Origin: Acidobacteriota bacterium
Lineage (GTDB): Bacteria > Acidobacteriota > UBA6911 > RPQK01 > JAJDTT01
Direction: 5' to 3'
Length of the DNA: 64,000 nucleotides
Assembly: GCA_965263035.1 (NCBI GenBank)
Contig: OZ253580.1
Span: 3,392,001-3,456,000 of the forward strand
The translations under genes and the position numbers were made by a program. This document shows positions 39,923 to 49,522 of this stretch, one piece after another. Position 1 is the first letter of the stretch. Each line of letters begins with the position of its first letter. The notes under the pieces were generated by a model that worked only from the letters and a program-made list of their open reading frames with translations, did not search any database and was not told the DNA's origin.

Positions 39923-41554
39923 TCACCGCTTCAGCAGTTCATCCAGCGACAGCTTTTCGAAGACGACGTCCGCCTGGCTTCCCTCATACACGATCCCCAC
40001 GTGCCGGTCGTCGACCCGTGCGATGCTGGGGTAGCCGCGCCCGCGGCCCACGTCCAGCAGAATCTGGTAGTCCTCGGGCCAGGTCATGCCGTCATCGAAG
40101 CTGACCTTGATGGTGTGGTGATGCCGGCCGTCGGTGGCGTTCGGATTGGCGAATAGCAGGATGTGTTTCGACTCACCATCTTCCTGGTAGTCGAAACGGA
40201 AGAGACTGGCGTTGCAGTTCGGTTCAATCAACGCCTTGCGGTCGGTTTCGTGCGGCGTCCAGGTTTGACCCAGATCGCGGGTCAAATAGACGGCCCGGTA
40301 GGGATCCGGCTTGTCATTGCGCATGTTCAGCATGATGGATCCGTCGCCGAGTTCCACCGCCAGGGTTTCATTGCCTCCACTGAAGGACGGATTGCTCACC
40401 GTCCAGGTGGCGCCATGGTCGCGGCTGTAGGTGATATTGCCAAAGGGGTATCCGGTCTCGTCACGCCCCTGAGTCGGCATGATGAGGGTGCCGTCCGAAA
40501 GAGTGATCCCCCGGTTCGGCGCCGGCGCGAAGAGCCACCATTCCGATTTCTTCAGTTTGCGGGTGAGGTTTTCCGGCTCGGTCCAAGTCAGGCCATCGTC
40601 CCGGGAGCGGACCATCAGGAACTGGGCGGTCGTGCCGATTTCGTATCCCGGCTCGGAGCCATCTTCGCGCCATTGGTGTTTGCCCGGTTTGCCCCACATC
40701 CAGACGGCGGTGACGAAGATCTCCCCGGTGTTCTCGTCCACGAGAATGCCGGGGTCGCTGACCCCGTTCTCCTCCTGGGGCAACCCGCCCCATTCCCCCA
40801 TGTCCATGATCGCCCGCTGTGGCTCCCAGGTCCGGCCGCCGTCCGTGCTGCGGGTCAGCCCGATGTCGATGTCTTCCTGCAAGTCTCTCGACTTGCGCCA
40901 CCGCATATCGTAGACGCACAGAAGGGTGCCCTTGGGCGTCGTGGCCAGTGCCGGGATGCGGTAGGTGTGGACCCCGTCGTCCATGTGTTTGCGCAGGGCC
41001 ACGCCGATCCGTTTGCGGACGCCGGGAGTCGTGTCCGTGGGGATCAGCACTCCCGGTGGAATCAGCACTCCTGCGGAGGTTTCGACGGACGTACAGACGG
41101 CATCGGTTCGGTGTCCCAAACCGGCATTTGGCCGCAACCGGACGGAAAGCCAAAAGACATTCTTCCCTGGCGACAATTCCTGATTTCCGGTGAAGACGAC
41201 TTCGTCAGCCGGGCGAGCAGGATCGCCGAATCTGTTCGTGGCCCCGAATTCCTCCTGGTCACCCGAGTAGAACAACTCGAGGGATTCAATGTCGTTCGGA
41301 TCGTCGGTGCCGGTGAGCGTAAAGTGAAATGATTCGGCGGTGTAGCCGGCGCCCTGCGTTTCGATTGATACGCGCAGCAACGGGTTGTGTTCATTTCGGA
41401 TCAGCACCGGATGCACCCGTTGGGAAGCGGTGATTTCCAGGCCGCCGAGGAACATTCCGCTGCATCCAACGAGAGTCAGCAGGAGCAGGATGGAAGCCGC
41501 ATGTCCCATCGCGATCAGACGAGTCGGTTTCGGAAATCCTCTTCCGGTTTTCAT
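39923..41554 (-). CDS. Exo-alpha-sialidase (GH33), probable lipoprotein
   Basis: YRIPAL motif and five Asp-boxes (STDGGRTW, SRDDGLTW, SRDHGATW, TRDLGQTW, SFDDGMTW); LVGC lipobox; RBS GGAGGAG. Confidence 0.9.
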   Translation of the reverse strand: MKTGRGFPKPTRLIAMGHAASILLLLTLVGCSGMFLGGLEITASQRVHPVLIRNEHNPLLRVSIETQGAGYTAESFHFTLTGTDDPNDIESLELFYSGDQEEFGATNRFGDPARPADEVVFTGNQELSPGKNVFWLSVRLRPNAGLGHRTDAVCTSVETSAGVLIPPGVLIPTDTTPGVRKRIGVALRKHMDDGVHTYRIPALATTPKGTLLCVYDMRWRKSRDLQEDIDIGLTRSTDGGRTWEPQRAIMDMGEWGGLPQEENGVSDPGILVDENTGEIFVTAVWMWGKPGKHQWREDGSEPGYEIGTTAQFLMVRSRDDGLTWTEPENLTRKLKKSEWWLFAPAPNRGITLSDGTLIMPTQGRDETGYPFGNITYSRDHGATWTVSNPSFSGGNETLAVELGDGSIMLNMRNDKPDPYRAVYLTRDLGQTWTPHETDRKALIEPNCNASLFRFDYQEDGESKHILLFANPNATDGRHHHTIKVSFDDGMTWPEDYQILLDVGRGRGYPSIARVDDRHVGIVYEGSQADVVFEKLSLDELLKR

Positions 41555-41677
41555 AGGTTCTCCTCCATTGGCCGGGTCGGGCCTGGGTCCGCAGGGAGAC
41601 GATTCTACTCCCATCGCGGCCGCTCCTCCCGAGTCCTGCCCCTGGCTTGGGAACGAGGCCCAACCCGGAAGGCTCGG

Positions 41678-42691
41678 TCAGAGGCGGATCCTGGCCAAGT
41701 AGATGCTGGTCTTGCCCTCATGGGAAGAGTAGTAGCTGATCCAGAGAAGTCCCTGATACCAGACCATCCCCGCGTAGCTCGTGTCGCCACCGCTGGGCAG
41801 CTTGAGCACAGGTTCGTAGCCCGTCAAGGTCAATCTGGCCAGGACGGTGAAGGGCTCCCCCTGGGTCCAGGCTCCGATCACCGGCGTTCCGGGCGGATAC
41901 CCCCGGGACGCGGCCCACAATGATCCGTCCGGTATCCGAATGAAATTGGGACCTCCCAGACGATGTTCCAGCTTGTGAAACGTCCATTCCCGGTAGGGTG
42001 GCGGGCTGCTTCCAACCCAACCCGGCCGGATCAGAGCCACCATCCGGTCGTCCGGCAGGAAACGGACGGTGGTTTCGCTGGGAGCCGTCTTTCGAGCCTC
42101 GGGCGTCAGGCCGGGCAGCTTGAATTCCGTGATCCAGTTCCACTCGATCCCGTCGGTCGTCCAGTAAAGGAACGCACGTCGAGGAGTAGGGGTCTCCCCC
42201 AATTTGGAAACGCCGTAGCCCCGCCCTTTGTGCCAGGTCACGCGCCACACCCAATGGTCCTCCGCCAATACACGGCGGGGCGATGACCAGTCGAATCCGT
42301 TCCCGGACAAGGCCACCCGGGGTGCCCGGGTCAGGTACCGGTCCCCGTCGTAAAGGCTGCCACCGGAGACCAGCCGGAGGCGTCCGTCCGCCATCACCGA
42401 CAATTTGGGATCCCTCAGATCCACACCCTCTTCAGTCAACAAAGCGGCCGATATCCATCCTTCGCCATCCTCGGAAACGAGCACGCGCAACTGGCCGCGC
42501 CGGCCTCCCGCATGCCGCTCTCCCTCCCGGAAGGTGCAGAACCATTTTCCCTGAAAGCGGACCAGATCGGTGAAGGCGTTATGAGGCGCCCGGTCCCAGA
42601 TCTTCCGGACCGATATGATCTCCGGCGAACTGGCGGTCGCTACCGCAGCGCCAACCCAGCAGAAAAGAAGCATGAGGAGAACAGGCGGCAT
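41678..42691 (-). CDS. Secreted sialidase-like/BNR beta-propeller protein
   Basis: Signal peptide; HNAFTDL, FREGERH, SEDGEGW, DLRDPKL, GGDTSYAG, YYSSHEG. Confidence 0.75.
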   Translation of the reverse strand: MPPVLLMLLFCWVGAAVATASSPEIISVRKIWDRAPHNAFTDLVRFQGKWFCTFREGERHAGGRRGQLRVLVSEDGEGWISAALLTEEGVDLRDPKLSVMADGRLRLVSGGSLYDGDRYLTRAPRVALSGNGFDWSSPRRVLAEDHWVWRVTWHKGRGYGVSKLGETPTPRRAFLYWTTDGIEWNWITEFKLPGLTPEARKTAPSETTVRFLPDDRMVALIRPGWVGSSPPPYREWTFHKLEHRLGGPNFIRIPDGSLWAASRGYPPGTPVIGAWTQGEPFTVLARLTLTGYEPVLKLPSGGDTSYAGMVWYQGLLWISYYSSHEGKTSIYLARIRL

Positions 42692-42908
42692 CTCTCGCTC
42701 CGTCTGACAGAAAGAATTTTCTCGGCTCGGAACGTTTCATACTAATCTAGCACTGCAAAATAGCGTCCGCCAGAGCGTCCGCTATGATGCTGCCAACAGC
42801 TTCGAAACAATCACGATTTGGAAGTCATTCACGGTGGATACGTAGTCGGTAGAGAATCACACTAGTATGGAGGGCGGTATGCTGGAGTGGTGGCCGTTGT
42901 TGCTAGCC

Positions 42909-45373
42909 CTGCCCTTTACCCACATATTGCACAGGGCAAATTAGCCTGGGTCTGGTTTCATTCATGTTTCTTCTCGTAAAGCGAAGCCCAGACACATGCC
43001 GTAGAGCGTGACGTAACCCTGCCACAGCAGTTGATGCCCAGGTGGGGGGTCGTGTTTACGAGCCAGATATCCCCCCAGGCGGGCCAGCACGAGCACGGCC
43101 GCCCCCAGGTCTTCCGGCGGTGGGTATCGTCGCGACGCGGCAAACGCCCCCAGGACCCGGATTTCCAGATCGGAAAACAACAATTGCGCCGGCAGGTCCG
43201 GGTCCTCTCGCCCCAGCAGCGTCATCAGCATGATCCGCCAGGCAATGACGGCGTGCATGGCGATGGCCCGTTTCAGACGTTCGGCGGTTTGGTGCTGGAG
43301 CTGTTGTACCCGGCATCCGGTCTTGAGCACCCGGAAATAATCCTCCACCCGCCAGCGCAGCGCATACCATCTCAGCAGTTGCTGCGCCGTCTCGACATCG
43401 GTCACCGGCAGGGTGGTGAGCAGGAACCATTCCAGGCGCTTCCCCTGCGCCGGCGGCGCGACCTCCCGCGCGTGCACCACCGACAGTCTCAGCGAAGGGA
43501 TGCCGGTTGGGTTCCCGCGCGGCGCCGGAATCGTCAGGGTCTCGTAGCGCAGTTCCATCCGAGCCACTCGCGCCGGCCGCCGCGGGCGGGCCGCCTGCTT
43601 GCTGGCCTTGATCCGCGCACTCTGACGCTTCACCTTCAGCAGCATCCGGGCCCGCACCGGCGCCGATCGCAGGCGCCCGAACAGCTTCCGCTTCTGCTCC
43701 TGGTCCGGATCCCCGCTTTTCCCGGCCGCCTTCGCCCGGGTCTTCCGCTTCAGCACCCGATCCTGCTTCGCACGCACCAGCAACTCCACCTCCGGAGACG
43801 CTCGTTGCTCGGCGAACAGTGCGAAAAAATCCGCCTCCCGGTCCACCACGCTGACCACCCGCACCCCGTCGAGGGACCGCGACACCTCGGCGCAGTCCCG
43901 AAGTCCCTCGATCCAGCGATACGTCTTCTTCTTTTTCCGCGTGGCCACCGGTCCCGGCTTCGGCGCGTCCAGCTTCGCCCGCAACACCCCCAGCGGCAGC
44001 CCCGTCTCACTCACCACCAGCGTCGCGTGCAGATGCAGTCCCCGCGCCGTCGCTCCCGTCTGGTTGCGCCCGATCACCCCCAGTCCCTCACACCGACCGT
44101 GCCGCGTGAAGTTCAGATCGCTCCCGTCCTGGATACACAGCACCGTCCGCTGCCCCTGCATCCGCTGTCGGGTCCGCTCCCGGTGCGGGGCCAGGATGTT
44201 GGACACCGTCACCGCCGAGGCTTCCGGCTGGTCGATCAGCCGGTAGTATCCCTTGACCGCCGCAGAATTCCCCCGCGCCACTCCCGTGAACGCCCGCCCC
44301 GGCTCCTGCGTCTGACGGTGCGCACTCTCCACCAGTCGCCGACTCAAGCGCCGGTCTCCCAGCGGCGCCTCACCCAACTCCTGCTGAGCCCAGCCCGCTC
44401 CCTCCAGTCCCTCGCCCTCCGACATCGGTTCCACTCCCCGCCTCGGCGCCGGTCCCACCCCCAACCGCCGCCGCCAATCCCGGCACAACTCATACCCATA
44501 GATCGCCTTGCTCGTCTCCGCACCACGGTGCGCCCGATCTTGCCGGCCTCGACCCTGCGTCTTCCCCAGAACCCTCCAGTTCGTGGCGCGCAAACTGGCC
44601 CCATCGTGGCGAGCCGTCTCCACGAAGGTCTCCACCAGCCAGGGACGGTAGCCGTAGCGCGCCTGGAACTCCGGACCCAGCCGCCGCAACACCTCCCCCA
44701 GCACCCGGGAGGCCAGATTACGACACCTCACTGACGGACGGATCAGAAACCGGCTCAGCCCCACCACCCGGTGCAGGTGCGCCCGGCGTTGTTCCTCATC
44801 CCATCCGATCCAGCGGTCCCGGTCCCGCAACCGCAACGCCGCCGCCCCGAACCCCAAGCCCCCCAGCCAGCCGTGGGCCGAGCCCACCAGATAGCGTAGT
44901 TGAGCACCCACCAACGGCCCCGCGCCCCGTGGATGCTCTCGCGCCATCAACTCGTTCCAGAGCGCTCGTTGCGGACCCGTCTCCACCAGAATCAACTCCA
45001 ACTCCCGCACGCCATCCACCGTCTCGGGCACCCCGACCGGCTCCGGCACCGCACGGCCCAGTCCTCGGGGCCCGCAATGTTTCACCCGCCGTCGCGGCGT
45101 CGGCAGACGAATCCGTCCGCGCGCCTCCAACTCCCGGAGCGCCTTCAGGCAGCCGCTCCGTTGCGCCCGCCCTCGGGCATCGTGAAATCCAAACTCCGAG
45201 CAGACCCGGTCCGCCAGCGCCGTCCGGTGGGCGAACTTCTCCCGCCTCATCACGGCGTGCAAACGATCCAACTCTCGGCCCAAGGTGCGCTTGATCTGGT
45301 TCTGAACTACCATGTCGTAAAGACTACGACAGGCATTCTTGTTTGTCCAGCCCTATTTGTGGGTATAGGGCAG
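42909..45373 (-). mobile_element. IS4-family (IS50/Tn5-like) element with a DUF4338-fused transposase (2465 bp)
   Basis: IRs CTGCCCTTTACCCACA / TGTGGGTATAGGGCAG (15 of 16 match); 8-bp TSD TGCTAGCC at 42901-42908 and 45374-45381. Confidence 0.93.
42962..45313 (-). CDS. DUF4338 (Druantia DruA-type) domain + IS4/Tn5-type DDE transposase fusion
   Basis: N-terminal GAQLRYLV, RDRWIGW, RFLIRP, NLASRVL, LVETFVE, ATNW; from about aa 305 WAQQELG...LGDRRL, IQDG, DREAD, YALRWRVEDYFRVLKTGC, LGGYLARKHDPPPG. Confidence 0.9.
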   Translation of the reverse strand: MVVQNQIKRTLGRELDRLHAVMRREKFAHRTALADRVCSEFGFHDARGRAQRSGCLKALRELEARGRIRLPTPRRRVKHCGPRGLGRAVPEPVGVPETVDGVRELELILVETGPQRALWNELMAREHPRGAGPLVGAQLRYLVGSAHGWLGGLGFGAAALRLRDRDRWIGWDEEQRRAHLHRVVGLSRFLIRPSVRCRNLASRVLGEVLRRLGPEFQARYGYRPWLVETFVETARHDGASLRATNWRVLGKTQGRGRQDRAHRGAETSKAIYGYELCRDWRRRLGVGPAPRRGVEPMSEGEGLEGAGWAQQELGEAPLGDRRLSRRLVESAHRQTQEPGRAFTGVARGNSAAVKGYYRLIDQPEASAVTVSNILAPHRERTRQRMQGQRTVLCIQDGSDLNFTRHGRCEGLGVIGRNQTGATARGLHLHATLVVSETGLPLGVLRAKLDAPKPGPVATRKKKKTYRWIEGLRDCAEVSRSLDGVRVVSVVDREADFFALFAEQRASPEVELLVRAKQDRVLKRKTRAKAAGKSGDPDQEQKRKLFGRLRSAPVRARMLLKVKRQSARIKASKQAARPRRPARVARMELRYETLTIPAPRGNPTGIPSLRLSVVHAREVAPPAQGKRLEWFLLTTLPVTDVETAQQLLRWYALRWRVEDYFRVLKTGCRVQQLQHQTAERLKRAIAMHAVIAWRIMLMTLLGREDPDLPAQLLFSDLEIRVLGAFAASRRYPPPEDLGAAVLVLARLGGYLARKHDPPPGHQLLWQGYVTLYGMCLGFALREET

Positions 45374-45971
45374 TGCTAGCCTGGCCCGCCGTTTTTTTGT
45401 CGGTGACCTTGGCTGTAGTTGGGATCGTGTCCAGAAAACCTGGTTTGATTGTCGTGGCGGCTGTCTTGGCGGCTCCGTTCAGCCTCTATCTCAGCGCTGG
45501 TTGGAATAATGGTATTTGGGTCTCAGTTGTCTTTGCGGCCTTTCCGCTTACATTTGTTGCCGCTGCTTACGCCGTCAAGCGACGTCGGCCATGGATTGCC
45601 TGGTGTCTGTTGGTTCCCTTCGTAGGTGTGGCCCTAAGACTGGCTATCCACGTGATCAGTCAGTGAAATCAATCTCACCTCTCTAACGGCGTCACGACAA
45701 GTAAGAGGTCCGAAGAGAAGGGGACAGTTGTCATTATCACGCCGCTCGATCCTGTTGGGCAAAAGGCTGATCCCAATCCTGCCCTGCCTGGACCGGACAG
45801 GTCACGTGCGAGTAAGAAGTCGGACACTTCACGTACTAACGACACTGGTACACTCGGACAGGAGTTCCCCCAAAAAATCAGGTCAAAACTCCGCAAGTGG
45901 TTGAAAGCACGAGAGTCAGAAGATTCGACAAGTGGAATCGGTCGAATTTTCCATGGATGGGAGAAGCCCTC

Positions 45972-46161: not shown

Positions 46162-46330
46162 GCCAAAATCCCAGGGTTGGTCGAACTCTAAATACTCGGC
46201 GTGGTATATGTTTGCTCCCTTCTATTCGACCAATCTCGACGAGTCCGCCACAACAGTAGGGACACGGCGCAGTCGCGCCGGGTGGTTTCCCTCAGCTTCC
46301 TTACTTCCCACCGATTCGGAGGAAAAGATA

Positions 46331-49300
46331 ATGCGACGTAGTTCAATGGCTGTACTGGTCTTGGTCGTCTTGGTCGTCTTGGTTCTGGGGTCTGCCGGTG
46401 TTCTCCGGGCCCAGGGCGAAGGATCTGGGACCATCACCGGAACGGTGCGCGACAATAGCGGTGCCGTGGTTCCTGGTGCTGACCTGGCCGTTGCCAATGA
46501 GGCGACGGGCCTCAGACGAACCGGCATCTCCGGCGAACAGGGGGCTTTCACTTTCGCCGCCTTGCCGGTCGGCTTGTACAACCTCAGTGTGGAGATGCCC
46601 GGCTTCAAGAAAGCGGTCGTGGAAGGGATCCAACTCGAGGTGTACTCCGTGGTGGATCACACCCTGACTCTTCAGGTGGGTGAAGTCAGCGATACGGTGT
46701 TGGTCACGGCCGAGGCTACGGTGGTGGACCGAAGAACCGCCGAGCTGGGGACCGTGATCGGGAAAGAGTTGGTCGAGGAACTGCCGCTGAACGGCCGGGG
46801 TTTCTTGCAGCTCGCCGGGATTCAGGCTGGCGTGCAGGACGGTAATGCTGCTCCCGGCGTAGCGCAATGGGCTTACGGTCCTCGCCAGACCTCGGCGTCC
46901 ATTTCCGGAACGCGGGTGAGTTCCACGTCGTTCGTATTCGACGGGATTCCTTTCAAGGAGCATTTTTACGGTGCCCCGGGGGCCCTCGTTCAAGTCGATG
47001 CCATCGCGGAATTCAAGGTGCAGAAGGGCTTTTTCACGGGCCGCGGCGCAACCCCGGGCGTGATCAGCGTCGTCACTAAACAGGGAACGAACGCGGTCCA
47101 TGGGAGCGCCTGGTTTTTTCACCGCAACGACAACCTGGACGCCAGAAGCTTCTTTGATCGAGAGATCGGAGAGTTTCGGCAACACCAGTGGGGCTTCGAG
47201 GTCGGGGGCCCGGTACTGAAGGACAAGCTGTTCTGGTACACCTCTTTGGAGGGGTTGGATTCAAGCCGGTTCAACACGCAGTTCCTCACCGTACCGTCGA
47301 CCAGACATCTCCAGGGGGATTTTTCCTCGTTGTCGACTCCCATCATGGATCCGATGACGGGCGAGCCCTTTCCCAACAACCGGATTCCGTCCGATCGCAT
47401 TCACCCCTGGGCCCGGTTGTACATGGAGGATGGCCTGATTCCAGCGCCCAATCTTCCAGTAACCGCCAACAACTTCACCGGTGCCGCACCGACCAATCAG
47501 ACTGACAGGAAATGGATCTGGCGTGGAGACTGGCAGATCACAGAAAACGATAAAGTCTTTGCCCGGGTGATCCACTCCGACTCGCAACTGTACGCCAATA
47601 GAATCAACAAAGGGGCGAATGTCGAGTATCCGCTGGATGGAAGAAACGCCGTCGTCAACTGGACCCACATTTTTGCCAATAATCTGATTCTGGACGCGCG
47701 GGCAGGACTGAACCGCGCTGTGATGTCATTGGCGCAGAACCTGGAACGGGACACGGACCCGATCTGGTCCGAGAGGTACGGCATCAGGAACATCAACACG
47801 ACCAGGACCTGTAACTATGCGCCAAGTGCACGCATGGTCGGCTACTCGTCCTTTGGGGGCGCCGGCAACTGCATCGTCCCCGTCAACAACGACCTCTACT
47901 ACATGGCCGATATGAGCTATTCCCAGGGTCGGCACGAAATGACCTGGGGTATGACCCTTGTCGACCGGTTCACACAGCAGCTGGCGGCCTCCTGGACCCA
48001 GGGTTCATTCAGCTTTACGGGCATCATTTCCGGAAACGATGTGGCCGACTTCCTTTTGGGACATCCCGAGAATTCCACGGGCGCCGCGGCGGCCGGGGCG
48101 AATCGGGTGTCCTGGTGGTGGGACGCCTATTTCGAGGATCGCATCCGCGTGACGCCCAACTTCAGCCTGACCCTGGCCCTGCGTTACCAGGTGCATCCCT
48201 GGCTCGCTTTGGAGGTTGGACCGGAAGGCGGCAACTATCTGGATATCATGGACTTCACGCGTCCGCGCGGAGGCGTGATTTTCGGAGGGCCGGGAAGTCT
48301 GATCGACACCGACTTCAACGATTTCGCGCCACGGATCGGGTTCGCGTGGACGCCCACTGCCAACCAGAATTTCGTGCTCCGGGGCAGCTACGGTGTCTTC
48401 TATGACGAAACCCCGGGCAACGACTTGGCGTGGGACAGCTCCGGTCCGCAAAATGCATTCATTAACAATGCGATCAGCCGGGATCCGAGGAACCCCGTAG
48501 ACATCGGCACGCTGTTTAAGGATCCTCCCGTATTCGATCCGGACAACTTCAACGAAATTCTGGATATGAGCGATCCCATCGGATATGTCTCACTGATTAC
48601 GGATGAGAGACGGAGTCCGTATCTGCAGAACTGGACCTTGAGCATTCAGAACATGCTTCCGGGGCAGGTTCTGCTGGAGACGGCTTATGTCGGATCGACC
48701 GGCAGGAAACTGTCCCAGCGGCAGGAGCTCAATCGTCCGCTTCCCCAACTCGGCGCGCCCCCCTTCGAGCAGGAGCGGCGCCCCTGGCCCAATATCGGTT
48801 TCAATATCCAGGACGCCGGTGCGGGGATGTCCGATTACCATGCACTTCAAGTCACCGTCAGAAAATCCAGCTCCAAACTCAGCTTCCTCATGGGCTATAC
48901 CTGGGGGAAGACGACCGACTGGGATTCCTTTGGATCCGTGACGACGTACCGGCTTACGGACACCAACAACGCCCGAAGCGATTGGGATATGGGACACCGT
49001 TTGTCCTTCAGCTGGAACTACCTGCTTCCGAAGATGGAAAGCCAATCCGGCATTATTCGGAATATCCTGGGTGGTTGGCAGTTTGGTGGGATTACCACGA
49101 TAAACAGTGGACTGCCGATTACGGTTGGCATGTCCAGCGACAACTCCAACACGGGATCCACCTATAACGCACGTCAGCCGAACCGGTTGCGCAACGGCAC
49201 CAAGGGAACCCCCACGATCGAACAATGGTTCAATACGGCCGCTTTTGCAGAAAATCCTCTGAATACGTACGGAAACAGCGGCCGAAATATCATCGATCGA

Positions 49301-49522
49301 GATGGGATCATCAACCAGGATCTGGCCCTGATCAAGAACTGGAGTCTTCCCATGTTGCCGACCGAGGAAGGACAGTTGCAGCTCAGATTCGAGTTCTTCA
49401 ACACCTTCAACCACCCGAACTTCGGCGGCCCAAGCTCCAATATTCAGAGTGCCGCCTTCGGAAGGGTCAGTGGCGCGTTGTCCGGCCGGGTCATACAAGT
49501 CGCTCTGAAGGTATATTTCTAA
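46331..49522 (+). CDS. TonB-dependent receptor, Oar-like, with carboxypeptidase-regulatory N-terminal domain
   Basis: GTITGTVRDNSGAVVPGA, LPLNGRGFLQL, DFAPRIGFAW, QLRFEFFNTFNHPNF, C-terminal aromatic residue (KVYF). Confidence 0.93.
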   Translation: MRRSSMAVLVLVVLVVLVLGSAGVLRAQGEGSGTITGTVRDNSGAVVPGADLAVANEATGLRRTGISGEQGAFTFAALPVGLYNLSVEMPGFKKAVVEGIQLEVYSVVDHTLTLQVGEVSDTVLVTAEATVVDRRTAELGTVIGKELVEELPLNGRGFLQLAGIQAGVQDGNAAPGVAQWAYGPRQTSASISGTRVSSTSFVFDGIPFKEHFYGAPGALVQVDAIAEFKVQKGFFTGRGATPGVISVVTKQGTNAVHGSAWFFHRNDNLDARSFFDREIGEFRQHQWGFEVGGPVLKDKLFWYTSLEGLDSSRFNTQFLTVPSTRHLQGDFSSLSTPIMDPMTGEPFPNNRIPSDRIHPWARLYMEDGLIPAPNLPVTANNFTGAAPTNQTDRKWIWRGDWQITENDKVFARVIHSDSQLYANRINKGANVEYPLDGRNAVVNWTHIFANNLILDARAGLNRAVMSLAQNLERDTDPIWSERYGIRNINTTRTCNYAPSARMVGYSSFGGAGNCIVPVNNDLYYMADMSYSQGRHEMTWGMTLVDRFTQQLAASWTQGSFSFTGIISGNDVADFLLGHPENSTGAAAAGANRVSWWWDAYFEDRIRVTPNFSLTLALRYQVHPWLALEVGPEGGNYLDIMDFTRPRGGVIFGGPGSLIDTDFNDFAPRIGFAWTPTANQNFVLRGSYGVFYDETPGNDLAWDSSGPQNAFINNAISRDPRNPVDIGTLFKDPPVFDPDNFNEILDMSDPIGYVSLITDERRSPYLQNWTLSIQNMLPGQVLLETAYVGSTGRKLSQRQELNRPLPQLGAPPFEQERRPWPNIGFNIQDAGAGMSDYHALQVTVRKSSSKLSFLMGYTWGKTTDWDSFGSVTTYRLTDTNNARSDWDMGHRLSFSWNYLLPKMESQSGIIRNILGGWQFGGITTINSGLPITVGMSSDNSNTGSTYNARQPNRLRNGTKGTPTIEQWFNTAAFAENPLNTYGNSGRNIIDRDGIINQDLALIKNWSLPMLPTEEGQLQLRFEFFNTFNHPNFGGPSSNIQSAAFGRVSGALSGRVIQVALKVYF

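Follow-up and report, generated by a model that had tools for sequence, protein, structure and literature searches.

An IS50/Tn5-subgroup insertion sequence whose transposase is fused to a DruA/DUF4338 module distantly related to phage Mu Mom

Here we describe a 2465-bp insertion sequence at positions 42909-45373 of the window (the whole stretch of 64,000 nucleotides that was analysed), whose one ORF encodes a 783-aa protein in which a DruA/DUF4338 module of GNAT fold is joined to a Tn5-type transposase. Our confidence is very high, at the least, that the element belongs to the IS50/Tn5 subgroup of the IS4 family and that it is intact and has recently been mobile. As the best overall explanation of its features, we consider it probable that the Mom-like module is a working part of this IS50/Tn5-subgroup element. 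The element, its domains and its flanks are laid out as follows.

42867..42908, + strand: 5' part (14 codons) of the small membrane-protein gene split by the element (own sequence reading)
42901..42908, no strand: left copy of the target-site duplication, TGCTAGCC, identical to 45374-45381
42909..42928, + strand: terminal inverted repeat at the end 3' of the transposase stop codon; starts CTGCCC, 17/20 complementary to the opposite end
42962..45313, - strand: single ORF, 783 aa, Mom-like GNAT module and Tn5-type transposase; intact in 12/12 full copies
43013..43249, - strand: Tn5 C-terminal dimerisation domain (Dimer_Tnp_Tn5, PF02281), aa 689-767; Pfam, 32.6 bits
43250..44218, - strand: DDE catalytic core, aa 366-688; residue-by-residue alignment to 1mus_A and conservation among relatives
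44225..44392, - strand: Tn5-type N-terminal end-binding domain (Tnp_DNA_bind, PF14706), aa 308-363; Pfam, 31.9 bits
44459..45013, - strand: DruA/DUF4338 domain, aa 101-285, with Mom-type GNAT fold; H127, R188, R192, N199, S202, E228 and E232 conserved
45089..45313, - strand: helical N-terminal sub-domain, aa 1-75, comprising four helices plus one short hairpin; Cys38 invariant; models, pLDDT 92
45354..45373, - strand: terminal inverted repeat at the end 60 nt 5' of the transposase start codon
45374..45381, no strand: right copy of the target-site duplication, TGCTAGCC, read from the sequence
45382..45666, + strand: rest of the split membrane-protein gene (homologue comparison)

The original prediction, made from the letters of the window, described a complete insertion sequence filled by one 783-aa ORF and flanked by a perfect 8-bp target-site duplication, and both the ORF, which runs from 45313 to 42962, and the duplication are as it described them. 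Its account of the inverted repeats as near-perfect was overstated; they are imperfect, with complementarity at 17 of the outermost 20 positions. A repeat search returned 39-nt inverted arms at 79%, which take in the duplication. A sigma-70 promoter scan of 42800-45500 returned 0 sites.

The Tn5-like part was expected to begin at about aa 305, and the positions of the Pfam domains, with Tnp_DNA_bind from aa 308, place its start there; residues 305-778 align to residues 9-464 of Tn5 transposase (E 4.6e-30). A Pfam search of the 783-aa protein also placed DDE_Tnp_1 at aa 503-690, and the NCBIfam model transpos_IS4_3 scored 303.4 bits against a cut-off of 160. In the alignment to 1mus_A, D396, D491 and E657 lie opposite the Tn5 residues D97, D188 and E326, and the YREK residues Y650, R653, E657 and K664 lie opposite Y319, R322, E326 and K333. 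These DDE and YREK residues are invariant or nearly so among 26 relatives.

The element shares with IS50/Tn5 (1MUS, 1MUH, 1MM8, 4DM0) the same three Pfam domains and a single ORF, but it is 2465 bp long and has a 300-residue N-terminal module that is absent from Tn5. Tn5 has a weak target preference and makes a 9-bp duplication, whereas the present element has a strict, CTAG-centred 8-bp target. In comparison with IS50, no GATC (Dam) sites were noted in the element ends as read. By the Tn5 paradigm, two transposase molecules would bind the ~19-bp ends and then synapse, and the element would be excised through hairpins and pasted in at a bent CTAG site, cut with a stagger of 8 bp. For the IS50 subgroup, Table 1 of PMC2266710 gives direct repeats of 8-9 bp, a range that includes the 8-bp duplication found here, and a typical size of 1350-1550 bp. 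On our reading of the end consensus in that table (CW------Y---CA-A--W-), both ends, which begin 5'-CTG as those of IS50/Tn5 do, match all 7 specified positions. The 12 genomic copies are all 2462-2465 bp and so lie outside the typical size, the element being ~900 bp over the usual length because its sole gene fuses the 300-residue module ahead of a complete Tn5-type transposase; the size criterion is a descriptive one and does not bear on mechanism.

Twelve full copies, at 98% identity, occur in the genome; 10 of them are flanked by a perfect 8-bp duplication, and no unfused copy was found. The element is present in 3 of the 9 genomes of the genus, and in four same-genus genomes (G001, G004, G005 and G006) the target site is empty, the duplication sequence occurring there once with one base different. 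The number and similarity of the copies and these empty sites uphold the earlier claim of a recently active transposase, and the copy count that had been proposed as a check found the fusion kept in 12/12 genomic copies. At the present locus the remainder of the split membrane-protein gene now forms an ORF at 45343..45666, whose TTG start lies within the element end; an uninterrupted homologue of the protein (..EWWPLLLGWPAVFLSV..) is found in the same four genomes with the empty site. In run X15, one contig joins 42900 directly to 45374, without the element and one copy of the duplication.

RNA-library contigs of runs X15 and X19 cover the element, and the summed contig depth in X15 was 78-426 over the element compared to 0-25 over the flanks; since depth cannot show expression and DNA was possibly present, contig depth in these two runs is not evidence of transcription. 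Many small internal contig joints, with sides of <30 letters, were treated as cross-matches from other copies or organisms. A repeat that lies beside several copies was considered as the end of another large insertion sequence, a candidate that was dropped when the pairing of ends failed; by column consensus the repeat is a miniature element of ~165 bp.

The element inserts almost only at NNCTAGNN. CTAG was found in 24/24 flanks of the 12 copies, and of 41 relatives with delimited ends, drawn from several phyla, 39 also sit at NNCTAGNN. The genome holds 2,024 CTAG where 21,457 would be expected from base composition, a ten-fold under-representation. The DruA domain is also joined to an IS66-type transposase (80 loci), and 43 of these loci, in which the match reached the DruA part, were scanned with an end-finding script; the flanks were too short in 5, no call was made in 27 and 11 were called. 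Clean GTAA-type ends with an 8-bp duplication were found in only four IS66 loci (L098, L113, L127 and L148), and CTAG was seen at 0/4 of these well-delimited elements and at 0/11 of the script calls. Since these IS66-type elements with the domain do not insert at CTAG, a role of the module as a general CTAG reader is rejected, and the target preference cannot be put down to the module.

Fusions of this kind are common among environmental bacteria. Homologues of ~770-790 aa number >4,000 and come from many phyla. The frequent loss of the domain among homologues had been named as an observation that would count against the prediction; PF14236 is kept in 117 of the 120 best homologues, the remaining three of which are shorter (456-606 aa). 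Within the phylum, Tn5-type relatives matched at E<=1e-30 in 7 of 151 genomes (including the present genome, G000, and the unpublished G014) and at most one of them looked unfused, which is too few for a workable comparison with unfused relatives. A further partner of the DUF4338 domain, DndF, is named in PMC10853773. A literature search returned no paper on a DUF4338-transposase fusion and none on a CTAG-targeting Tn5 relative, while ISfinder or the member lists of the IS50 subgroup might name such elements.

The front part of the protein consists of the helical sub-domain and the DruA/DUF4338 domain. The assignment to DUF4338 in the original prediction held up against Pfam, where DruA (PF14236) matches aa 103-261 with 109.6 bits against a cut-off of 27, covering profile positions 48-226 of 297. 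The motifs it quoted are also in place (RFLI at 188-191, NLASRVL at 199-205, LVETFVE at 226-232 and HDGASLRATNW at 236-246). Chance is very far from accounting for these matches. An AlphaFold2 model of the N-terminal domain has a mean pLDDT of 90.4 and a GNAT fold, in line with PMC10853773, in which DUF4338 is named a GNAT. A Foldseek search of the PDB gave 53 matches at E<=0.001 and, among the matches listed, all are GNAT-type acyltransferases. Modelled alone, aa 1-97 reached a pLDDT of 92.2 and the best PDB fold matches were Z-alpha winged helices at E 1.4, which is not significant; with that E value the winged helix is a weak suggestion, and aa 1-75 are possibly winged-helix-like in the model.

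Conservation within the protein is highest in the GNAT part, where pairwise identity averages 0.52 against 0.44 in the transposase part; pN/pS among the 12 copies is 0.19 and 0.27, respectively, from few variants. By itself, this N-terminal conservation would fit a catalytic module as well as one with a structural or binding role. In GNAT enzymes the pyrophosphate of acetyl-CoA is held by a loop with the motif Q/R-x-x-G-x-G/A between strand 4 and helix 3. On our own reading, the corresponding loop of the module is RPSVRCRNLAS, which has no glycine, and the acetyl-CoA motif is absent, as it is in Mom.

Mom of phage Mu is the nearest characterised relative of the GNAT domain, and the link is a distant one. 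In PMC13219725, Mom is described as a GNAT enzyme that takes glycine from Gly-tRNA(Gly) and transfers it to adenine in double-stranded DNA, modifying N6. The comparison of the front part with Mom and GNATs that had been proposed as a check put Mom (8bv8) first among solved structures in Foldseek (E 5e-5, 20% identity, TM 0.59 on Mom's length), by a narrow lead over the next match (E 7.6e-5), and a Mom stands at rank 4 in a structure search of BFVD. An hhalign comparison of the family with the Mom family alignment gave E 2e-4 and a probability of 45.6%, with the N-terminal half badly registered. When PF14236 was left out, the three named clusters that lay nearest in a protein atlas were found to carry Mom, which is a lead only. 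At the level of profiles, Pfam Mom (PF25680) has no match to the 783-aa protein at E<=1, whereas it matches 12 of 27 relatives at this threshold (best 0.0014) and one relative, P0216, passes the Pfam cut-off (30.1 bits compared to 27.1); a search of PDB sequences with a profile of 27 family members returned no Mom at E<=10 and chance matches only.

The residues compare as follows. In the hhalign alignment, S202 lies opposite the catalytic serine of Mom (S124 as numbered in PMC13219725, S114 in the 231-aa numbering) (Ser in 24 of 26 fused proteins, Thr in the other two), while E232 lies opposite Mom D149 at a position that is Asp or Glu in 26/26. H127, R188, R192 and E228 are each invariant in the same 26 proteins. 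For the essential R111 of Mom, hhalign points to R192 and our own reading of an L-x-R followed by three hydrophobic residues points to R188, both Arg in 26/26. The stretch ...GASLRATNW is set opposite ...GVVYQASNF of Mom, placing Leu241 opposite the tyrosine Y159; a leucine in place of this tyrosine had been predicted, and among the fused proteins the position is Leu in 11, Tyr in 9 and Phe in 6. Mom R151 falls opposite Ala234 and its equivalent is not conserved, the adjoining position 235 being Arg in 5/26. By eye alone, Mom H58 would correspond to His127 (26/26) and Mom Y59 to Pro128 (Pro in 23/26). Gaps in the hhalign alignment show that the HTH-like insertion of Mom (~residues 175-209) is absent and that a short G-R-G-R-Q-D loop stands in its place; the insertion is essential, its deletion abolishing Mom activity.

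In sum, module and Mom (PF25680; 8BV8) share the GNAT fold, the lack of the canonical acetyl-CoA glycine loop (own reading), an R-N-x-x-S where helix 3 begins, an acidic residue following strand 5 and the pattern G-x-x-[Y/L/F]-x-A-x-N-[W/F], and Mu is also a transposing element. They differ in that identity is ~20% and the match lies below the Pfam Mom threshold, that a conserved short G-R-G-R-x-D loop replaces the HTH-like insertion and the equivalents of Y59, R151 and Y159 are not retained, and that the module is joined to a transposase, with an additional helical domain in front of it. The predicted likeness to Mom and GNATs thus stands for the fold, for Mom as the top solved structure and for several key residues; it fails for the Pfam Mom family and for the HTH-like insertion. 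The roles that the prediction put forward, in which the element would mark its own DNA, escape restriction or spread defence, are speculative.

With DruA of type I Druantia the module shares the Pfam family PF14236/DUF4338 and a R-D-x-W-I-G-W-D stretch that also occurs in the genome's own DruA, but only the core of the profile is matched by the module, which is carried within a transposon and has no Druantia neighbours. That real DruA (677 aa, G000:C1:4621008-4623041) adjoins an ATPase and an SNF2 helicase and scores 661.7 bits on the PADLOC DruA model, compared to 14.3 bits (E 0.0041, over 48 residues) for the 783-aa protein, and the two proteins have only a 28-residue local match. No Druantia genes were found beside the element, whose neighbours are its own ends and the split membrane-protein gene. 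Judged by sequence, the 783-aa protein is not a DruA orthologue.

Because it combines the best conservation in the protein with a Mom-like set of polar residues, we take the module for a working part of the element and, most likely, an enzyme. We propose, tentatively and at somewhat short of an even chance, that it would work in cis on nucleic acid: a flipped base in the DNA of the element or close by would be modified or gripped, which would give the transposon its own chemical control of when or where to move. Dam methylation at the ends and promoter of IS10 and IS50 couples transposition to replication, and by functional analogy a modifier borne by the transposon could do the same job independently of the host; in the case of Dam, a host enzyme places N6-methyladenine at GATC, whereas here the enzyme is predicted to be part of the transposase itself. 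A wider form of this proposal, which we think rather doubtful, is that a large class of DDE transposons across phyla, both Tn5-type and IS66-type, has built in a Mom-type enzyme. From an activated donor, acyl or aminoacyl, this enzyme would attach a bulky group to a DNA base in the element or nearby, as a self-written epigenetic signal by which the transposon would time, limit or direct its movement.

It is unlikely, in our estimate, that the module is instead a GNAT of the ordinary sort, acylating either a protein (the transposase, or a nucleoid or repair factor of the host) or a small molecule, tuning the activity or stability of the transposase and leaving DNA untouched. This would accord with the 53 PDB matches, since the ones listed are N-acyltransferases of proteins or small molecules and score close to Mom, and with the missing HTH-like insertion and R151 and Y159 equivalents; it sits less well with a strand 4-helix 3 loop that departs from the acetyl-CoA motif and resembles PRNSES of Mom (own reading), with Mom families being the nearest beyond DruA by three methods, and with the other known partners of the domain (IS66-type transposase, DruA defence proteins and, in PMC10853773, DndF), which all act on DNA. 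To the same low degree we would credit a non-catalytic module, one that binds or scaffolds DNA, tRNA or a second transposase and aids synapsis, target capture or the recruitment of host factors. The equivalents of two Mom tyrosines and one arginine have been replaced in this clade, an extra N-terminal helical domain with weak winged-helix resemblance precedes the module, and strong conservation equally fits a structural role; yet between 24 and 26 of 26 proteins, at ~44-52% overall identity, retain the residues opposite the Mom Ser and Asp and the invariant His and Arg, which binding alone would be less likely to preserve, and the general role in reading CTAG fails on the IS66-type elements.

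Cargo related to defence, spreading a DruA-like function or serving as a decoy against Druantia-type defence, is very improbable: the Pfam domain is named after Druantia DruA and the same genome has a real 677-aa DruA, but the module is fused in frame in all 12 copies and in 117 of 120 best homologues rather than carried as a separate passenger gene, and the gulf in PADLOC score, the 28-residue match, the partial coverage of the profile and the lack of further Druantia genes alongside all speak against it. That the fusion is an artefact of assembly or frameshift, or a decaying pseudogene, has a negligible probability. Nothing was found in favour of it, and it is refuted by an uninterrupted 783-aa frame in 12/12 copies and by the >4,000 homologues of like length from many phyla; contigs from independent public runs also cover the fusion.

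Should the domain merely be a structural add-on, the element would be an oversized IS50 relative only. Its strict NNCTAGNN target, for a Tn5 relative, could serve site-biased transposon tools. We know of no transposase that carries its own DNA-modifying enzyme, and here an enzyme-like domain shows the highest conservation within a transposase that has thousands of occurrences across bacterial phyla, the same domain recurring with an unrelated transposase family and in a phage-defence protein. If the module does modify DNA, it would add a new layer of transposon self-control, and tRNA-dependent DNA hypermodification would no longer be confined to phages. For DruA, which of all type I Druantia parts is understood least, it would also offer a concrete and testable function, and if transposons do mark themselves in this way, DruA may be the self-marking or DNA-probing component of that system.

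The element is a Tn5-type cut-and-paste element that inserts at an 8-bp, CTAG-centred target and carries, fused to its transposase, a selectively maintained front module with a predicted Mom-like GNAT domain. Its ends were located by reading the sequence.

Features of the element in the window
42909-45373: insertion element, 2465 bp
45313..42962, minus strand: single ORF, 783 aa by translation
42901-42908 and 45374-45381: copies of the target-site duplication, both TGCTAGCC

The element starts with CTGCCCTTTACCCACATATT and its far end is the complement of CTGCCCTATACCCACAAATA. Both the 783-aa ORF and the perfect 8-bp duplication on the two flanks agree with the original prediction, which had also called the inverted repeats near-perfect; they are imperfect, with 17 of the first 20 bases complementary (a repeat search gave 39-nt arms at 79%, the target duplication being counted within the arms). 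In Table 1 of PMC2266710, the IS50 subgroup has the end consensus CW------Y---CA-A--W- and a direct repeat of 8-9 bp; the element matches 7/7 specified positions of the former and its 8-bp repeat lies inside the latter range.

Pfam domains of the 783-aa protein
aa 103-261: DruA/DUF4338, 109.6 bits
aa 308-363: Tnp_DNA_bind
aa 503-690: DDE_Tnp_1
aa 689-767: Dimer_Tnp_Tn5

The front domain is thus DUF4338, as had been proposed, and the Tn5-like part begins where it had been placed: against solved structures, aa 305-778 aligned to residues 9-464 of Tn5 transposase (E 4.6e-30), while NCBIfam names the protein "IS4 family transposase" (transpos_IS4_3, 303.4 bits). In a structure-sequence alignment D396, D491 and E657 lie opposite Tn5 D97, D188 and E326, and Y650, R653, E657 and K664 opposite the Tn5 YREK residues. 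The transposase half is thus complete and looks active. By analogy with Tn5, the transposase would bind the ends, synapse as a dimer, excise the element through hairpins and insert it with a stagger.

The carrier genome, G000 (one contig, C1, of 6.198 Mb and 62% GC, with the window at C1:3392001-3456000), contains 12 full copies that are 98% identical, a further copy interrupted by a 1782-bp IS3-type element, and a 583-bp fragment. The count of genomic copies bears out the fusion: all 12 full copies keep it in an uninterrupted 783-aa frame, with 11-20 residue differences from the window copy. Perfect 8-bp duplications flank 10 of the 12. The element is real and was mobile recently. In the interrupted copy (G000:C1:334758-339007) the break is at element position 920 and the inserted element encodes an IS3-type (rve) transposase. 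The only two copies with unequal flanks, L012 (G000:C1:200619-203080) and L011 (5047138-5049599), lie in opposite orientation; exchanging their flanks restores one perfect duplication (8/8) and one that matches at 7/8, as expected if recombination between the two copies had inverted a large part of the chromosome. Five of the 12 (L004, L007, L010, L005 and L003) lie on the same strand within 100 kb (G000:C1:1353251-1453918), a cluster that may stem from short-range hopping or from plasticity of the region.

The gene interrupted by the window copy encodes a small membrane protein and is broken after codon 14. In four genomes of the same genus (G001, G004, G005 and G006) the site is uninterrupted, ...GTGGCCGTTGT-TGCTAGGC-TGGCCCGCC..., and the gene is intact. 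The split gene remains an open frame (window 45343-45666, plus strand) whose start is now a TTG within the end of the element; 13 element-encoded residues thus stand in place of the native 14. Contigs from two public sequencing runs (X1, X5) span both junctions. One 459-nt contig from a further run (X15), to be taken with caution as reads were matched at 90% likeness, joins 42900 to 45374 with 2 differences over 394 aligned bases; because it omits exactly the element and one duplication copy, it represents an empty-site form, from either a strain without the insertion or excision. The element is present in three of nine genomes of the genus (12 copies in G000, four in G007 and three, at 84% identity, in G005), and its nearest public relative is in a record titled Acidobacteriota bacterium. 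On either side (window 39923-42691 and 46208-49522) lie ordinary metabolic and transport genes; by-eye reading of translations gave two BNR/sialidase-like ORFs upstream and a 1104-aa TonB-dependent-receptor-like ORF downstream.

The target NNCTAGNN is present on every flank of the 12 copies (24 of 24), in a genome where CTAG is observed 2,024 times against 21,457 predicted from base composition; inside the element the count is zero. From 557 related loci in species-representative genomes, 80 were fetched, and a script looked in each for element ends together with a perfect duplication. It gave a call for 42; in the other 38, flanks were short or repeats imperfect. Among the 42, L018 was a longer palindrome rather than a duplication and was dropped, leaving 41. 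The target is NNCTAGNN in 39 of these 41, a count that includes by-eye re-registering of two shifted calls (L022, L085) and of the calls given as "10-bp"; only L014 (GCCAAGCC) and L087 (GGCGGGAC) differ. The titles of the records behind these 39 name Vicinamibacterales, Gammaproteobacteria, Methylococcales, Spirochaetia, Bryobacterales and Acidobacteriota, the majority being Vicinamibacterales that are kin to one another. Recurring across these groups, the CTAG target and its 8-bp stagger are therefore a trait of the whole Tn5-like clade.

The N-terminal 300 aa alone matched 6,259 cluster representatives at E<=0.001. Ten were scanned: seven have a Tn5 end-binding domain, two are DruA only, and the tenth (P0234, 883 aa) belongs to the IS66 transposase family and has its DruA domain at the C-terminus. 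Among 80 fetched relatives of P0234, the script was given the 43 whose match extended into the DruA part; flanks were too short in 5/43, 27/43 gave no call, and none of the 11 calls lay at CTAG. Four elements had clean GTAA-type ends and 8-bp duplications (TTGTGGGG, TTTGTTTT, AAAAAAGC and TTTGTGTG). Since these IS66-type elements bear the module domain without CTAG, the choice of CTAG belongs to the Tn5-like clade, and the module is ruled out as a general CTAG reader. A miniature non-coding element of ~165 bp, with ends unlike those of the Tn5-like element, occurs ~102 times in G000 with CTAG on both sides (for example at C1 8545, 15000 and 1443041; zero times within the window), and at least 4 of the 12 insertion sites are a CTAG bordering this repeat (L005, L010 and both reconstructed L011/L012 sites).

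The original prediction had considered that homologous elements might often lack the domain. PF14236 is present in 117 of the 120 best full-length homologues, the other three being shorter (456-606 aa, 87-99% identical to the window protein), and no relative among the 120 has evidently shed it. Across the 4,484 homologues scored among 8,000 candidates, names include "IS4 family transposase" (Achromobacter, Anaerolineae, Salinisphaera) and "putative transposase" (Thioalkalivibrio). The GNAT part is the best-conserved region of 26 full-length fused proteins (mean pairwise identity 0.52; transposase 0.44, aa 1-75 0.37), and among the 12 copies its pN/pS is 0.19, that of the transposase being 0.27, from few variants. 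A literature search, with ISfinder and the PMC2266710 supplements outside its scope, found no paper describing DUF4338 fused to a transposase. What is added here is the CTAG target shared across the family, the IS66 test with its negative outcome, the empty sites, and a residue-by-residue comparison with the 2026 Mom paper.

A confident model of aa 1-300 (27 sequences; pLDDT 90.4, pTM 0.81) predicts four helices and a short hairpin at the N-terminus (aa 1-64), followed after an extended linker by an alpha/beta domain (aa 101-285). The Mom/GNAT resemblance originally proposed held at the level of fold: the top Foldseek match in the PDB was 8bv8, Mom S124A (E 5e-5, 209 columns, 20% identity, TM 0.59 on Mom's length), followed by many GNAT acyltransferases starting at E 7.6e-5, and a BFVD search placed phage GNAT-like proteins on top, with Salmonella-phage Mom at rank 4. 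DUF4338 is classed as a GNAT in PMC10853773. The resemblance did not extend to the Pfam Mom model, which had no match in the window protein and matched 12 of 27 relatives at E<=1, one of them above the cut-off; nor did a plain profile search of PDB sequences find Mom. With hhalign, the family alignment matched phage Mu Mom alone at E 0.0073 and a 25-sequence Mom alignment at E 2e-4 (probability 45.6%, 137 columns), and the first three clusters of a protein-language-model search minus PF14236 were Mom-bearing (scores 0.90, 0.87 and 0.87, as leads only). Overall, this evidence supports a Mom-like GNAT identity for the alpha/beta domain and makes Mom its nearest characterised relative, though a distant one.

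Module residues opposite Mom, paired from hhalign alignments unless stated and counted over 26 full-length fused proteins; the annotated Mom (231 aa) is numbered 10 below PMC13219725, agreeing with PMC7261163
R198-N199-L-A-S202: Mom R-N-S-E-S (catalytic Ser124); position 202 Ser in 24, Thr in 2 of 26
E232: Mom D149; Asp or Glu in 26/26
G238...L241-R-A-T-N245-W246: Mom G...Y159-Q-A-S-N-F; position 241 Leu in 11, Tyr in 9, Phe in 6
R192 (hhalign) or R188 (local pattern, by reading): Mom R111; both 26/26
Ala234: Mom R151; not kept
H127 (by eye): Mom H58; 26/26
P128 (by eye): Mom Y59; Pro in 23/26

With G...L-R-A-T-N-W opposite Mom's G...Y-Q-A-S-N-F, the predicted motif match is correct, including L241 for Y159. 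GNATs bind the acetyl-CoA pyrophosphate by a loop with a glycine-bearing motif; by reading, this loop in the module has no glycine, like that of Mom. Mom's HTH-like insertion, deletion of which abolishes Mom (PMC13219725, section 13), is missing from the module, which has a conserved G-R-G-R-x-D loop instead. The DUF4338 family alignment falls into two co-varying forms, that of the window protein (H-P, Cys preceding N-L-A-S, Leu/Phe/Tyr at the Mom-Tyr position) and a second (H-Y, with Val/Ser replacing the Cys and a Tyr at the Mom-Tyr position), which may reflect two different chemistries or cofactors.

The GNAT acyltransferases among the structural matches bring to mind an enzyme acylating proteins or small molecules, a reading we consider unlikely; the other partners of the module domain (IS66 transposases, DruA, DndF) are all DNA-related. 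A non-catalytic binding module, set beside an unkept Mom R151 and a largely kept catalytic serine, seems to us similarly doubtful. That the module is defence cargo is very improbable: it scores 14.3 bits on the PADLOC DruA model against 661.7 for the real, 677-aa DruA of G000, with which it shares a 28-residue stretch only, and so is not DruA proper; nor are the element's surroundings a defence island. The genuine DruA stands elsewhere.

G000:C1:4619451-4629288 (L179 5452-15288): defence-like gene row at the DruA locus

This row, which looks like a defence locus, comprises a GHKL-type ATPase (MzaB-like), the full-length DruA, two family-less ORFs (538 and 533 aa) and a SNF2/DpdE-like helicase of 1006 aa. 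The ORFs scanned included no DruE/DUF1998 protein, and an IS4-like DDE_Tnp_1_4 transposase adjoins the row. For the transposon module the reading we favour, tentatively, is that it would act in cis on nucleic acid, either modifying a base as an enzyme or, at the least, reading a flipped base. Such action would supply the element with its own control signal.
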